NCBI GenBank assembly: GCA_000182565.2
Contig: KQ257451.1
Reading direction: 5' to 3' (one strand)
Source: Spizellomyces punctatus DAOM BR117
Lineage: Eukaryota
DNA length: 10,778 nt
Shown here: positions 4,716 through 10,778 of the stretch, in pieces
How positions within the stretch are numbered: position 1 is the stretch's first letter
Layout of the letters: each line of letters opens with the position of its first letter
Notes under the pieces: model-generated
Seen by the model: the letters and a program-made list of their open reading frames with translations, nothing else
What the model was told of the DNA's origin: nothing
Database searches by the model: none
Translations under genes and position numbers: made by a program

Positions 4716-5336
4716 ACTAGAGTATTTGTCACTTTCATCATTGTACATTATACGATACCTAACCATTTCAGTAGTGCTTTTTTATTAATATACCAATATC
4801 ATGCACTTGCATCAAAACGTTTTGGCATCTGACGAAGTGGAGCTGTTTGGATATCACTCATGGGGTAATTGGCAATCGATATCCTGTTATCGTATCTATC
4901 GCATCTACGAGTGTCCAAAAAAGAAGCCCTGCGGTCGCCCTCCTGGACCCCTTTGAAGGTGTGATGACCATTTGTGATTATGTGAGCGCGTTAGTCATTT
5001 ATTTATCTTTTTCCCACGGTGCTCGAGTAGGATGAAAACGACCACCGTTTTGCACAGATGAAGAGCAGACAATGCAGAATATGGACAGCCTTTCAATGCA
5101 CAATGTCGTCTTGACCATGTCCAGTTGTTTTACGGCGGTTGCAGTCGACAAGGTTCGTCGTGAACGGAATTTCCGCGGAAGAACGAGCGCGTCAAGGAGA
5201 TGCCAGGGGTAGAAGCACGTTCTACAGATCAACGTCGATTGGTGCTACTCGCAAGGGACTAGAACGTCATCGTCTTCTCGAGAGAAAGAGCTTACGTTGC
5301 ATGCCCCACAACCCCAAAAGCGCAGTCGCCCTCGGT

Positions 5337-5344
5337 TATAAAAA
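5337..5344 (+). promoter_or_regulatory. TATA box (TATAAAAA) upstream of the K-turn array
   Basis: Consensus TATAWAWR inside GC-rich flanks, ~55 nt before the first hairpin, with no credible protein-coding ORF downstream on this strand. Confidence 0.55.
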
Positions 5345-5392
5345 GGCACCCTTCCCTCGCCCCCCCGCTTTTGAACTTCACCGGTTGACGCT

Positions 5393-5890
5393 GACTGCAG
5401 ACCCGCGATGGTTGGGGCGGCTGCTATACCAATGATGTCTTCGGACGGAGGTATACCTGACGATGCCTTCGGGCGGAGGGAGGACCCGTGGTTGAGATGG
5501 ACTGTAGTCTGCGCTGGTGTGGAGCAGCTACTTATATCCCAATGATGCCTTCGGGTTGAGGGATATAACCCAATGATGTCTTCGGGCGGAGGGAGGGCCT
5601 GAGTGGGTGGTTGCATGGACTGCAGTCGCGATGGTTGGGGCGGCTGCTATACCCGATGATGCCTTCGGGCGGAGGGAGGACCTAGTGGGGTTGCATGTGG
5701 GTGGTTGCATGGACTGCAGTCGCGATGGTTGGGGCGGCTGCTATACCCAATGATGCCTTCGGGTTGAGGGAGGACCTTGGTTGAGATGGACTGATAGCTG
5801 CGTTGGTGTGGAGCAGCTACTTATATCCGGATGATGCCTTCGGGCGGAGGGATATAACCCAATGATGCCTTCGGGCGGAGGGAGGGCCTG
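5393..5890. repeat. Imperfect tandem repeat of five ~80-115 nt units containing eight copies of CC-RAT-GATGYC-TTCG-GRYKGA-GG
   Basis: Core copies at 5425-5455, 5456-5480, 5532-5568, 5569-5593, 5652-5676, 5746-5770, 5821-5857 and 5858-5882. 5603-5654 is identical to 5697-5748 (52 nt), and 5489-5601 is near-identical to 5778-5890. Confidence 0.97.
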
Positions 5891-5906
5891 GGGGTTGCGA
5901 AAGTTA

Positions 5907-5912
5907 AATAAA
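5907..5912 (+). terminator. Candidate polyadenylation signal AATAAA
   Basis: AATAAA 25 nt after the last K-turn, at the abrupt change from G-rich to A-rich sequence. The A-rich tract may instead, or also, be the U-rich 3' end of the minus-strand JHY gene. Confidence 0.4.
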
Positions 5913-6019
5913 GGAAGAAAAGATCCAAAAGATAAATATGTTTATTGAAAACGAAAAATAATTCCATCCAACGTCCTTTGAACATCCCAATCATCTTCAT
6001 CCAGTCGCACCATTCTAGT

Positions 6020-8748
6020 TCACAAGCCCAGTTCTTTTCTTATGTTTTCCACAGCCTCCAGACCTCTCTCGTGCTCTTCCTCCAATTGTCGCAGTTCATC
6101 CTGTTCTGCCATAACAGCCGCTGTCAGATCTTTTGCAGACTCTCTGGACGTCCTTACCGGAGATGATGATGAGAGACATAAAGTAGGTTTCTTGATGGTG
6201 GACGCGTAGGCTTTCATCTGTAATCAAAGTCAGCTTATGGGCGTTCTGTGCGGTTGGGACTTTGCAATGGAATGACCTTTTCTCTCTTGGCAATCGCTTG
6301 CTCCAATTTGTCAGACGACGCAAGTTTAGAGCCAATGAAAACCGACGCAGGTTGTTTCTTCCTTCCCTTTTCTGCGACCGACTGTCTCTGCTGAGGCGAC
6401 GGAGAAGGACTCATTCTTTTATCTCCAGAGTCACTTCGTGCCGAATGTGCTCGTGCTGCGGTGGAAGTTTGGGAGTGCGGCCGGAGATCGGGCTGACTCC
6501 TTGAATCGGAGACGTTATGGGGAGTGGTGCGTGTGATGGCTCGGATTTGGGCGCCATACTCTTTTTGACGTTGCCATTTTTCAAGCTGTATTTTCACGGT
6601 TCAGATGAATGTCGCTGATGAAGAATACAAATCGACTTTTACCTTGGCTTTGTACTCTTCGCTTCCAATATCTGGGCCCAATCCACCTAGTTTGACCGGC
6701 TGTACGATCTTTGTGGTCTGTCGCGGCGTACGTTGATAGAGGGATACAGATGAGGACCTCGTCGAAGGTTCGTGATCTTCGGCTGCTCTTGCGACATTTG
6801 TTTTGGTAATTTGAAGCCCTTGTGGTGGATCATGTATTGGAGGTAAACTAACCGTTTCGGTGGAAGGGATGGCATGGGAACGAGCTCCCATATGCGAACC
6901 GAGTGAGGGAGACATGGCACCTGCAGGGATTGGAGTGAAGGATGTACTTGCCGATTGCCGTGCGGCAGGTAGAGGCGGTAACAAAGGCATGCTTCCATAC
7001 TCTGCATATGTATTTGGTGGTTGCATGATAGGTTGGTGTGGGGATGGGGTATATGCGTATGGGCTCTGCATGTTCATCCGTATTCCAAACGTTCCTGTAG
7101 TGCCGCAAGTGTAGACGGTTGGATCTTGACCTGCAAGGACGTACGGATATCTAGGTGCTGATGATGGCTCATGGTGATCCGGTTTACGGCACCCAGGCCA
7201 TAAGCCAGCTGTTTCTCTCAGCCTGTAATCATTCAGCGTAGGCTGCGACCGATACTTTGGTAAATGAGATGCTGATGGGCGCGATGTCGACAATGCTGGA
7301 GAGCTATTGTATTGCTTGTTTTCAGGGGCGTTCCGAACTCGTAGTGATGAGTGCTGTAGTGCCCTAGCAGAAGGATTCCCTCCATAGGAGCTTTGAGATG
7401 AGGACCGGCTTTGGGGTTGTTGGTGTGCAGGGTGTTTCGGTTGTGCGTGGGGCGGTACGAAAGAGAAGGAGAAAGCGGATGGCCGTGGGTTGCTTGGGAC
7501 GACACTTTGCTGGTTATGCGACCGTTCGGGTTGGTTTGCCGCCTGCTTACCATAAACATAGGAAGGGGCCTCCCTTTGCTGTACAAGTGGTTGAGGAGTA
7601 TTGGGAATACTTGGGAGACGGAGAACTGGAATAGATTCAAGATTGGGAAGATCGTAATCATCAGGATTCAAAGAGACGCTCGATTTGGAAGTGGAATCGG
7701 CATGGTCATTGTCGCTATCTTTACTACCGTCTTGCGATGGTGACGTTTCCTTCTGCACATCCCTCTCTGACGCTGCCTCTACATTCATCTTCCAGACAGT
7801 CGATTGCACAGCTTCTGTCATCTCTTTCATCGCCTGAAAGGACCAATTTGGGTATTTCCGCAGTACTCGCAGGGCTGCACTTTTTAGGCTTTCAGTTTCT
7901 TCGGTGTTGGAGGTTGCTTGTATTTCCGAGATATCGTGCGTGATTTCAGGTGACGTGAGAGTTGTGGTTGAAGGCATGTGGGGCAATTGTGTAGAAGCAA
8001 TATTCCTGCCATTTCAACCATGGAGTTAACAAGGTGAAATTTGCGGAAAAAACCTGAGATATAAAACCTACTCTGTGGGGTTCATGACACTTGCGTCCTG
8101 TTTCAAAACATTCCTGTTCTCCTCACTGGAGGTAAGTACATGGCTCTCTGTTGGTTGTGATAAACTCCATTGTGATTCAATCATGTTGACGTCCACATCA
8201 GCGCTTTTAACAGCTGATGTCTCAGATTGCTGTTGCTTCTTCCCTCTGTTGTCCCCTTGTCGTGATTTTCCTCTAGAGGAGAGTCTTTTGTACTTTACTC
8301 GAGGTTTAAGAGAATGTGAAATCGATGGAGAACTCTTCCATCGACGCATCGACGCGGATGAAGCCCTAGGTGCGAGGCGTTTGGATGGAGCAACTGTTAG
8401 TGGCATGTTCTTTTTCCCGTTCACAATTGGGACGATGCTGCCGTCACGGGCGATCCGAGAGACCCTGGAGCCAAGCTGTCATAAAAGTTTTATGCACGTC
8501 GGTTAGCTGAAATAGATATGCCGTACGCATATTGGGTGATTGATACCAACTTTTATAAGAAATGCATCATGGGCTGCAGTCGCTTGTGATACGGCGTTGT
8601 CCAAAGGTGATCGCACATTAGCGGACGATAAGGTCGCCTCTGGTAGCATTTCAACACTGCTTGCGTCACGATGCGTATAGTACCGTTGCGCCCGAGGTAA
8701 TGGAATACCACTGCCCAAGAGAGTGTCCTCGGAAGGTTGATTGTTCAT
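6020..8748 (-). CDS. JHY: JHY-domain (C11orf63/DUF4591-like) cilia/flagella-associated protein, ~823 aa, largely disordered. Exons 8748-8551, 8475-8072, 8005-6643, 6585-6277, 6217-6020
   Basis: Five adjacent minus-strand ORFs join in frame through introns 8550-8476 (GTTGGT..GCTAAC..CAG), 8071-8006 (GTAGGT..GTTAAC..CAG), 6642-6586 (GTAAAA..CAG) and 6276-6218 (GTCATT..GCTGAC..CAG). The C-terminal blocks VKLGGLGPD..K/LEKWQRQKEYGAQIR, KREK/MKAYASTIKKP and LRQLEEEHERGLEAVENIRK match my recollection of the JHY C-terminal domain. The rest is S/P/Q-rich low complexity. Confidence 0.75.
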
Positions 8749-9747: not shown

Positions 9748-10778
9748 ATGCATGTCCCCACATCCATTATTCTCGCGGTTGCCGTTGCGGCTGCACCAGC
9801 GCTCGCAGCCTTGTCTGACTGCCAGAAATCTATTGTCCAGCAACTGACAAATACATATGAAAACAGTCAGCTCAACTTTGCGTTTGATTACTGCGAGAAT
9901 ATTAAAGATGGAAGAGGATATACTGTTGGAATTGTAGGGTTTACAACGTATGTTTTCCTTGTGCTCGTGTGTAGGCATATCAGATAGACCCTCTAACCTC
10001 ACACCATCTCCTCCAATCTCCATAGCGCAACACGGGATGCATTCGATGTTGTCAACACATATACCAAATCTTCAAATTACACGGGGGAATTTGATCCCTA
10101 CTATGACCGCCTAAAGCAACTCAATCAAACAGGCGATTCATCAACATCCGGGTTGAATGGTTTCTGTGATGCTTGGTACACAGCCTCATCCAACCCAGCA
10201 TTCCGAGCAGTCCAGGTCGCAAAAGCCGATACACTCTACTACGTCCCCTCACAAGGCTACGCTGAACAGCTCAACCTGAATTTGCCAGTCTCCAGAGGCC
10301 AGTTGTACGATGCGGCCATTCAGCACGGCACGGACCCTGATCCTGATTCTCTACCTTCGATGATATCGCGGGTTCCAAAACCTTCTGATATGGATGAATT
10401 GACATGGATAAGTAACTTTATGAAAGAACGCACTCGCACGTTGTGTAACACCGCGAATAAGGCGACACAAAAGGCGTGGTGCCAATCTACTTCCCGTGTG
10501 CGATCATATCAAACCATTTTGAGCAATAAGCCAGATTTTAACGATACAGTGGACGCACTGGACAATGATGGAAAGCCTCTGACAGTGCAGTGTGATTTGG
10601 GACTCTGGACGAGGTACATTCCTGGCCCGGCTGCCGGCGGAAAGGCTGGATTGTCGGGTGCAGCCGTTGCGGGTATCGTTATTTGCATTTTGTTGGTAGT
10701 GGCGGCCATTGCGTACTTTGTGTACAGGCGGTGGAAATCTGGAAGCTGGAGACCGGTGGGAAAGGGATCCTTGGTTTG
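9748..10778 (+). CDS. Glycoside hydrolase family 46 chitosanase with signal peptide and C-terminal transmembrane helix. Exons 9748-9947 and 10026->10778 (3' partial)
   Basis: Signal peptide MHVPTSIILAVAVAAAPALA. GH46 signature YENS...YCENIKDGRGYTVGIVGFTT with candidate catalytic Glu (9859-9861) and Asp (9907-9909). Phase-2 intron 9948-10025 (GTATGT..CTAAC..TAG). Exon 2 gives ATRDAFDVV, FCDAW..A..NPAFRAVQ, LYY.PS, GQLYDAAIQHG and DELTWISNFMKER, then TM GLSGAAVAGIVICILLVVAAIAYFVY-RRWK. No stop before the window end. Confidence 0.92.

Follow-up and report, generated by a model that had tools for sequence, protein, structure and literature searches.

The DNA examined here is a stretch of 10,778 nt, referred to as the window, from contig KQ257451.1 (assembly GCA_000182565.2) of the early-diverging fungus Spizellomyces punctatus DAOM BR117. 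At 5425-5882 the window holds an array of eight short hairpins (Kt1 to Kt8) that carry the sequence signature of the kink turn (K-turn), and this array lies within an abundant non-coding RNA transcribed from the + strand. The degenerate core GATGYCTTCGGRYKGAGG was scanned over both strands of the window with at most two mismatches permitted. Eight matches were obtained, at 5434, 5462, 5544, 5575, 5658, 5752, 5833 and 5864, each with 0 mismatches and all on the + strand, with 0 matches on the - strand and 0 in 200 dinucleotide-preserving shuffles. A preliminary description made from the sequence had reported eight occurrences of the consensus and none on the reverse strand, and both claims are borne out; the - strand lacks the K-turn signature because the GA...GA of the motif would read UC...UC there.

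The signature itself is unchanged throughout the array. The two GA steps and the C(UUCG)G cap, described earlier as invariant, are present in 8/8 copies, and the bulge letters are AAU in five copies, GAU in two (copies 5 and 7) and GAC in one (copy 2), in line with the earlier reading. The canonical (C) stem is long in copies 1, 3 and 7, and the two C stems already pointed out, UAUACC/GGUAUA at 5425-5455 and UUAUAUCCC/GGGAUAUAA at 5532-5568, were confirmed by reading the sequence. The non-canonical (NC) stem is UGCC/GGCG in copies 2, 5, 7 and 8, and the pair-keeping variants claimed for copies 1 (UGUC/GACG), 4 (UGUC/GGCG) and 3 and 6 (UGCC/GGUU) were each found as stated. The pair that closes the bulge (-1b.-1n) is C-G in six copies, U.G in Kt2 and G.G in Kt7, the last being a mismatch that had been noticed before.

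Compared with the standard K-turn, all eight hairpins have a 3-nt bulge on one strand, although Kt7 can alternatively be read with a 4-nt bulge, and the two C-helix pairs beyond -1b.-1n are standard in 8/8. Tandem G.A/A.G pairs also occupy 1b.1n and 2b.2n in 8/8, with an NC helix next to them, which speaks to the sequence requirement and not to sheared geometry. In the alignment of the eight hairpins, 93.8% of the NC-helix cells are paired. The first position of this helix, 3b.3n, is U.G in six hairpins and U.U in two, and 4b-4n is G-C (G.U in Kt3). These features support the assignment of the hairpins, as far as sequence can define it, to the standard K-turn with a 3-nt bulge. The preliminary description had equated them with the geometry of the U4 small nuclear RNA (snRNA) and of box C/D motifs; the signature part of this claim stands, while stem II proves to be nearer to box C/D than to U4.

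The eight copies are not independent of one another. Tandem Repeats Finder reports periods of 28/31, which correspond to abutting hairpin pairs, and of 94/113, which correspond to higher-order units, and a repeat search returned an 81-nt family with three copies of 64-100% identity and a 116-nt pair of 91% identity. The array consists of five duplicated modules that belong to two subfamilies, alpha (beginning at ~5390, ~5598 and ~5682) and beta (beginning at ~5484 and ~5776). The earlier wording of eight tandem K-turns is correct in its count, but the copies are set within these five duplicated modules and cannot be treated as separate instances. Because of this arrangement, copy number alone says little and the pattern of variation is the informative part. 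Each module runs from a G/U-rich linker ending in GACUG to an 8-bp hairpin, named H, and then to one or two K-turn hairpins. The first type, Kt-a, has a long A/U-rich C stem and abuts H, and the second, Kt-b, has a CCC/GGG stem and abuts Kt-a. Directly abutting K-turn pairs are Kt1/Kt2, Kt3/Kt4 and Kt7/Kt8. In both Kt5 and Kt6 a Kt-a 5' flank is joined to a Kt-b 3' flank, a pattern that suggests unequal exchange between a module's two hairpins as their origin.

Hairpin H, conserved in five copies, was absent from the preliminary description. Its stem is GCAGUCGC/GCGGCUGC in the alpha modules and GUAG(U)CUGC/GCAGCUAC in the beta modules, and the two forms differ by two C-G to U-A double changes. 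In the alignment of the H hairpins 92.5% of the cells pair; the three unpaired cells result from the H5 bulge, which was misaligned by MAFFT. The pentamer GACUG ahead of the H stem is unchanged in 5/5 modules (5394-5398, 5500-5504, 5618-5622, 5712-5716 and 5789-5793). In four of them it reads as part of GGACU, which fits the DRACH consensus for N6-methyladenosine (m6A). Two other compositional features were observed in the array, namely four-tract G-quadruplex-type motifs at 5584-5607 and 5873-5894, whose letters partly coincide with the 3' halves and flanks of Kt4 and Kt8, and a strong positive GC skew (0.298 over 5601-6000).

Variation among the copies tends to keep the hairpins paired. In the K-turn hairpin alignment, 90.9% of 77 cells are standard pairs, a share that drops to 39-57% once the 3' partner is shifted by 1-3 columns. 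Changes on both sides of a pair occur twice, both in Kt1, where a C-stem pair went from C-G to A-U and an NC-stem pair from C-G to U-A, and three further pairs have turned into wobble pairs, including G-C to G.U and C-G to U.G. Variation touches nine of 25 core columns but none of the ten that carry the signature (GA/GA and cUUCGg); P for such a placement is 0.0024 in a naive calculation, which takes no account of how the copies are related. When the alpha subfamily is compared with beta, identity is 88% for the K-turn core (351/400), 65% for H (110/170) and 35% for the linker (55/156). Differences between the K-turn hairpins of close paralogues fall at tolerant positions (bulge position 1, 3n, 4n and 5b), with the exception of a C-to-G change at -1b of Kt7.

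Transcription of the array was followed in raw reads of RNA run X20, which bears the same species label. About 6 in 100 of the run were sampled and aligned to 5000-6500, and 3901 reads of up to 60 nt were placed; the library type is unknown. In the + direction, depth over eleven bins covering 5357-5917 is 490, 1009, 160, 214, 476, 362, 180, 170, 180, 157 and 56, with the deepest bin at 5408-5458, while in the - direction it does not exceed 0.92 over the same region. Depth rises from 0.96 at 5306-5356 to the 490 of the first bin (5357-5407), and the aligned part of 398 and 605 reads begins at 5389 and 5390, respectively. Downstream, + direction depth falls to 14.5 (5918-5968) and 2.6 (5969-6019). 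The three bins of 5153-5305 have a depth of 0 in both directions, which rules out the array RNA as the tail of the MTC6-like gene lying upstream. The read direction could be tied to RNA sense through a convergent neighbouring gene, which shows a - direction depth of 31-46 over 5969-6121 and an intron joint at 6217->6277 with CT..AC ends, that is, GT..AG on the - strand; the read direction of X20 is therefore the sense of the RNA, and the array RNA is a + strand transcript. It is several-fold more abundant than the RNA of this neighbour. No joints with at least three supporting reads were found inside the array among the X20 reads. The locus is its own transcription unit and gives rise to an abundant, unspliced + strand RNA of ~530-570 nt. 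A + strand RNA of ~500-550 nt had been predicted from the sequence, and the reads bear this out as a discrete and abundant transcript.

A promoter box can be inferred in TATAAAAA from its sequence and place, and AAUAAA is a candidate poly(A) signal (Table 1). Transcription by RNA polymerase III is unlikely, since no T-run terminator is available: the + strand between 5390 and 6000 contains no run of at least four T. The array RNA is non-coding. Its eight cores lie in frames [1,2,0,1,0,1,1,2], all three + frames hold stops, and the longest open reading frame (ORF) with an AUG in the RNA is 45 aa; it opens at 5408 with the first AUG. The ORF that covers the array on the - strand has no Pfam match, that strand is untranscribed in X20, and a comparison of this 133-aa frame with a large protein collection yielded 11 candidates, none at E <= 1.

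Table 1. Coordinates of the array RNA, its hairpins and its flanking elements in the window (MFE, minimum free energy fold).
Feature	Position	Strand	Details
TATAAAAA box	5337..5344	+	53 nt upstream of the RNA 5' end; putative promoter element
Transcribed unit, non-coding RNA	5390..5935	+	5' end 5389/5390; 3' end approximate, ~5920-5960; from RNA reads
H1 hairpin, alpha	5397..5424	+	GCAG(AC)CCGC / GCGGCUGC, loop GAUGGUUGGG
Kt1	5425..5455	+	6-bp C stem, AAU, UGUC/GACG, UUCG; isolated MFE K-turn-compatible
Kt2	5456..5480	+	C stem CCU/GGG, bulge GAC, NC stem UGCC/GGCG
H2 hairpin, beta	5504..5531	+	GUAG(U)CUGC / GCAGCUAC; pairing probability 0.81-0.93 at span 60
Kt3	5532..5568	+	9-bp C stem, AAU, UGCC/GGUU (3b.3n U.U, 4b.4n G.U); z -2.21; probability in full-length fold 0.70-0.92
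Kt4	5569..5593	+	C stem CCC/GGG, bulge AAU, NC stem UGUC/GGCG
H3 hairpin, alpha	5622..5647	+	GCAGUCGC / GCGGCUGC; probability 0.99 at span 60
Kt5	5652..5676	+	C stem CCC/GGG, bulge GAU; resembles a Kt-a/Kt-b fusion
H4 hairpin, alpha	5716..5741	+	
Kt6	5746..5770	+	CCC/GGG, AAU, UGCC/GGUU; sole copy whose isolated MFE is not K-turn-compatible
H5 hairpin, beta	5793..5820	+	G(A)UAGCUGC / GCAGCUAC
Kt7	5821..5857	+	8-bp C stem with G.G beside bulge GAU, NC stem UGCC/GGCG; probability in full-length fold 0.99
Kt8	5858..5882	+	C stem CCC/GGG, bulge AAU, NC stem UGCC/GGCG
AAUAAA, candidate poly(A) signal	5907..5912	+	depth declines across 5867-5968

The reads also contain sequence variants of the array. 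A U-to-G change at 3b, belonging to copies absent from the window, was observed in 165/418 reads at 5577 and in 33/100 reads at 5866, and it keeps that position non-Watson-Crick. The cleanest U-to-G read at 5577 carries one further difference, which is most likely the C at 5579 (184/424 reads; Kt8 has C at the matching position). Loose read ends were seen at 5568, 5683 and 5751; after 5751, 67 reads run on with a different NC stem, and after 5683, 44 reads run on into sequence absent from the window. These expressed variants suggest that units have been collapsed in the assembly or that paralogous arrays are transcribed elsewhere.

A search against Rfam, which had been proposed in the preliminary description, gave 0 matches in the window at gathering score and only two sub-threshold matches at E <= 10. 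The S-adenosylmethionine (SAM) riboswitch model matches 5843-5869 with 14.7 bits against a threshold of 44.4, over model positions 15-40 of 108. This match aligns to the K-turn of the riboswitch and runs from the 3' half of Kt7 into the 5' half of Kt8, and since it spans halves of two hairpins, it represents an alternative register and not a riboswitch. When drawn, it shows a K-turn in the opposite register, with a C stem GGG/CCC closed by AUAUAA. A SAM-I riboswitch was rejected on the sub-gathering score, the coverage of 26/108 model positions and the lack of a downstream ORF to regulate. The best box C/D match in Rfam reaches 12.7 bits against a threshold of 75, and U4 gives no match even at E <= 10. 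A covariance model built from the eight copies and run over the whole window with filters off recovered the training copies only (35-49 bits), the next best hit in the window having 10.7 bits and E = 0.14. Literature searches, with supplementary transcript tables outside their scope, returned no description of a natural multi-K-turn long non-coding RNA (lncRNA) or of this RNA. The earlier remark that no fungal RNA of eight tandem K-turns was known to have been described agrees with these literature and Rfam searches.

Relatives of the array were sought in several collections. A metagenome scan with a 23-nt motif returned one locus (L001, 1611-1633) with a single copy, which was rejected as a chance match in AT-rich, coding-like DNA with no second copy. 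The double-module pattern occurred 0 times in prokaryotic genome contigs and 0 times in viral contigs, a result that informs little on fungi because these collections are prokaryotic and viral. Assembled contigs from other runs were also compared with the window. Run X11 provides two identical 151-nt contigs (5865-6005 and 5986-6136) and run X7 one identical 155-nt contig (5500-5654), and these hold no divergence information because they are identical to the window. Run X12 provides a 212-nt contig with a depth of 2.6 that has two differences over 5560-5608, then a 113-nt skip with 21 other letters, and then ten differences and three gaps over 5722-5850. Among the changes that could be placed (6/10 differences and the three gaps), seven lie in linker or H sequence (5725, 5787, 5794, 5798, 5803, 5807 and 5812) and two in the distal C stem of Kt7 (5821 and 5825). 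No conservation statistic can be drawn from this contig because four differences are unplaced and it may be an orthologue, a paralogue or a chimera.

Multiple features of the hairpins can be compared with known binding sites of the L7Ae family. Snu13p/15.5K has been reported to bind K-turns with a 3-nt bulge closed by G.A/A.G pairs, to select U at bulge position 3 and to require that the bulge be closed by one pair or more (Clery et al. 2007, PMC1874613). The same work gives no sequence need in helix II except for a preference for U.U atop the sheared pairs, the pair favoured when ligands were selected from random pools (SELEX) (PMC1874613). The array hairpins follow these rules, with U at bulge position 3 (L3) in 7/8, a closing pair in 7/8 and U.G or U.U on top; above 3b.3n there are three further pairs and the cUUCGg cap. 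On the basis of these reported rules, the hairpins fit the site requirements of Snu13/15.5K and are predicted sites. In addition, G at 3n has been reported to favour folding in metal ions alone (McPhee et al. 2014, PMC4382518). The array resembles such ion-folding K-turns in having 3n = G in six of its eight hairpins, and these six might fold even without protein.

The U4 5' stem-loop, which binds Snu13/15.5K and then Prp31, has a short C stem whose last pair is C-G, a bulge of 3 nt with U at its end, tandem G.A/A.G pairs and a capped short NC stem, and the array hairpins share all of these. The AAU bulge of U4 is found in 5/8 array copies. On the other hand, the NC stem of U4 has two pairs and a pentaloop, while that of the array has four pairs and a tetraloop, and the array RNA has neither a U6-pairing region nor an Sm site. 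In 97% of U4 sequences 3b.3n is reported to be G-C or G-U (PMC4382518), and the hairpins are not copies of the U4 stem-loop because their 3b.3n is U.G or U.U. U4 snRNA was rejected as an identity of the array RNA on this position and on the Rfam result.

With 3b.3n U.G/U.U and 4b-4n G-C, stem II resembles box C/D more closely than the U4 5' stem-loop. The consensus of box C is RUGAUGA and that of box D is CUGA. The array 5' strand AUGAUGC/U (GUGAUGC in Kt5 and Kt7) matches six of the seven box C positions, and ACGAUGC in Kt2 matches five of seven. Like box C/D, stem II of the array has 3b = U, 4b = G and 4n = C, and two copies hold the U.U pair that is preferred in Snu13p SELEX (PMC1874613). 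Unlike box D, the array 3' strand is CGGA in six copies and UUGA in two, matching 3/4 of CUGA, and a 4-nt loop takes the place of the guide region, which makes methylation guiding impossible. A small nucleolar RNA (snoRNA) of the box C/D class was rejected because the boxes are not matched, a guide region is absent and the Rfam score is far below threshold. Recruitment of Nop56, Nop58 and fibrillarin through the box C/D-like stem II is conceivable. In mouse, 20-50-nt RNAs bound by Snu13 and fibrillarin, named tiSNORDs, have been described, and their authors themselves weigh biological noise as an explanation (bioRxiv 10.64898/2026.07.28.740266). The array hairpins are similarly tiny, but eight of them occur in one abundant independent transcript, unlike tiSNORDs, which are single, intronic and of low abundance.

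Among published natural RNAs, the closest multi-K-turn arrangement that was found is the P12 double K-turn of euryarchaeal RNase P RNA, in which each K-turn is reported to bind one L7Ae-family protein (PMC5499556). Adjacent K-turns in a natural RNA are common to both, as shown by the three abutting pairs of the array. Unlike the array, the RNase P K-turns share one helix of a catalytic RNA, while those of the array are separate, tetraloop-capped hairpins in a non-catalytic RNA; the domain of life and the protein are also different. At the level of the whole transcript, the sno-lncRNAs of the Prader-Willi region, which are said to sequester Fox proteins, are similar in being abundant non-coding RNAs with many copies of one protein-binding element, which in the array is putative. 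Unlike theirs, the array element is a structured K-turn hairpin and a candidate L7Ae-family site. A selenocysteine insertion sequence (SECIS) element has a long helix II and conserved apical A residues. The array, with its 3-nt bulge and a helix II of four pairs capped by UUCG, was rejected as a SECIS or SBP2 site. SECIS elements also have a large internal loop, and such a loop in place of the bulge is reported to lower Snu13p affinity and to raise SBP2 affinity (PMC1874613). The available text of a preprint on fungal selenoproteins (10.1101/314781) does not mention Spizellomyces, and this together with the wrong geometry makes SBP2 an unlikely partner.

The explanation favoured here is that the locus encodes a multivalent K-turn RNA, specific to this lineage, to which an L7Ae-family protein binds, most likely Snu13, and a probability of roughly 45% is attached to it. 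The eight hairpins would be docking sites for this protein, and the array RNA would form a multivalent K-turn ribonucleoprotein (RNP) that buffers or concentrates Snu13, possibly gathering box C/D partners that read stem II as well. The motif and its strand, the expression level and boundaries of the RNA, its non-coding nature, the modules and the pair-preserving variation are observed; K-turn folding in vivo, binding, the identity of the protein and a buffering or scaffolding role are what we infer from them. The decoy, scaffold or condensate roles suggested in the preliminary description are likewise putative. In a stronger form, the RNA would be a K-turn sponge or scaffold, the first to come from nature, titrating or concentrating the pool of Snu13 and perhaps of Nop56, Nop58 and fibrillarin, and thereby coupling the assembly of small nucleolar RNPs (snoRNPs) and of the U4 small nuclear RNP (snRNP) to growth or life-cycle stage; this stronger form is doubtful. 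The building block is a textbook K-turn, and what would be new is an abundant non-coding RNA built from repeats of predicted Snu13-type K-turn hairpins.

Several observations weigh against a Snu13-binding array, beginning with thermodynamic folding. In isolation, the MFE is a K-turn-compatible fold in 7/8 hairpins, but z-scores of single hairpins range only from -2.21 to +0.18, and the full-length + strand has z = -1.57, with 5/100 shuffles folding equally well (the - strand of the array region has z = -1.13). In the partition function of the full RNA, NC-stem probability exceeds 0.5 only in Kt3, Kt5 and Kt7, and all five H hairpins stay at or below 0.02. When pairs may span at most 60 nt, Kt3 (0.72) and Kt7 (0.84) are the only K-turn hairpins to form, and inner pairs of H2-H5 reach 0.81-1.0. 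In RNAfold the hairpins compete with a 6-9-bp helix in which CCUUCG(G) pairs with CGGAGG from the copy before it or with the G-rich flank on the 3' side. An example of such inter-copy pairing lies at 5446-5471, with equivalents between other neighbouring copies. This pairing could be a structural switch or a by-product of G-rich composition. Equilibrium folding of the whole RNA backs 2-3/8 hairpins, and a protein would probably be required to hold the five K-turn hairpins whose C stems have 3 bp. The double change at 5b/5n of Kt1 supports the local hairpin over inter-copy pairing because the competitor excludes 5n. The folding result is a real uncertainty and not a refutation, because nearest-neighbour models ignore K-turn geometry, bound protein and cUUCGg hairpins formed during transcription. 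Further points concern descent and data. Close paralogues differ no less often in the K-turn hairpins than elsewhere: modules U2 and U5 differ at 5/63 K-turn, 3/29 H and 4/26 linker positions, and modules U3 and U4 at 3/26, 0/27 and 4/35, respectively. Features common to the copies are largely inherited because the copies stem from recent duplication (modules 91-96% identical), and gene conversion could homogenise the cores and so mimic conservation. No orthologue or relative was found in the metagenome, prokaryotic, viral or protein collections searched. In X20, 3629/3901 reads align over part of their length only, and 182 could be placed at two positions. The end-site table lists no position at which many molecules begin or end, so that the 5' end was set by the step in depth and by pile-ups of loose ends.

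Much of this would also be expected if the array were an expressed young tandem repeat without selected function, a minisatellite confined to this lineage, in which a chance K-turn-like unit came to lie behind a promoter and was multiplied by duplication. The identity of the five duplicated modules, the even spread of differences between close paralogues, the weak thermodynamic support and the lack of relatives outside the window in the collections searched all agree with such an origin, as does the report that K-turn-like sequences in a transcriptome far outnumber functional ones (10.64898/2026.07.28.740266). A neutral repeat accounts less readily for a discrete transcript with a TATA box, sharp boundaries and a depth above that of the neighbouring gene, or for a motif confined to the transcribed strand. 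The compensatory changes on both sides in K-turn and H hairpins, the invariance of the signature columns among varying core columns and the order of alpha/beta identity, highest in the K-turn cores and lowest in the linkers, also argue against it, and it is regarded as unlikely. A peptide-coding role is scarcely credible: an AUG lies near the 5' end, similar AUGs recur in the modules, and ORFs of 45, 40 and 29 aa begin in or just before the repeated AUGGUUGGGGCGGCUGC segment, so that an mRNA for one or more short peptides can be imagined, but the repeat is read in three frames, stops break all of them, and the - strand ORF is untranscribed and has neither a Pfam match nor a homologue in the large protein collection.

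The RNA could also be a polycistronic precursor that is cut into small K-turn RNPs, as single hairpins, pairs or modules, comparable to guide-less box C/D-like particles of the tiSNORD kind. The box C/D-like letters of stem II, the U.U pair in two copies and the existence of 20-50-nt Snu13- and fibrillarin-bound RNAs in mouse (10.64898/2026.07.28.740266) are compatible with this, and so is the 67-read variant after 5751 ('...GGGCT'), which would place CU before GA as in box D. The uneven coverage, 1009 over 5408-5458 against 157-476 further on, might be taken as a trace of processing, but this 5' excess arises because about 1000 reads start at the 5' end. Moreover, coverage is unbroken across all linkers, internal end pile-ups are not listed for X20, and the 4-nt loop has no room for a guide. 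As far as 60-nt RNA-seq reads, to which RNAs of 25-40 nt are invisible, can tell, a precursor role appears distinctly unlikely. In a further alternative, the K-turns would be architectural and fold without protein, or ligands would act on the H loop, the G/U-rich linkers or the G-quadruplex-type motifs. The 3n = G of six hairpins, a letter that predisposes to ion-only folding and against which U4 is reported to be biased (PMC4382518), fits this idea, and so do the conserved H hairpin with its compensatory changes, the invariant GACUG and the two G-quadruplex-type motifs. Set against these, there is no evidence of tertiary partners, a 4-bp NC stem with a tetraloop is too small for the long-range contacts usual for K-turns, and the linkers are the least conserved part of the modules; an architectural role is therefore given little credence.

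Snu13 is common to U4 in the spliceosome, to all box C/D snoRNPs and to U3. If the Snu13-binding array is real, an abundant RNA of tandem K-turns would offer a handle on how Snu13 is apportioned among these, in an early-diverging fungus that is amenable to genetics. The few repeat-built lncRNAs that buffer proteins would gain an example based on a structured motif, and multi-K-turn arrays, hitherto a device of synthetic biology, would prove to occur in nature. If the array is a neutral repeat instead, it would serve as a caution on how readily K-turn-like hairpins arise and multiply.

The neighbouring genes give no functional link to the array. The upstream ORF encodes an MTC6 TIM-barrel domain (Pfam), and its product shares 93% identity with a Spizellomyces sp. 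'palustris' protein and 44% with one from Gaertneriomyces, as expected for DNA of a Spizellomyces-like chytrid. No L7Ae-family protein was found among the window ORFs of at least 80 aa scanned with Pfam. Downstream, the convergent - strand gene (5918-6376, intron 6218-6276) has no recognisable family, and at its 3' end it overlaps with the terminal part of the array RNA, with a depth of 14.5 (+) and 10.3 (-) in the bin 5918-5968. Two - strand ORFs of 461 and 120 aa have no Pfam match, and the 461-aa ORF has no Atlas match at >=0.9. Other ORFs in the window carry DUF3712 and GH46 domains (Pfam). The GH46 domain (E = 2.2e-17) lies in an ORF at 10153-10776 on the + strand that runs off the window end. 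GH46 is mainly a bacterial chitosanase family, and its presence is unusual in a fungus.

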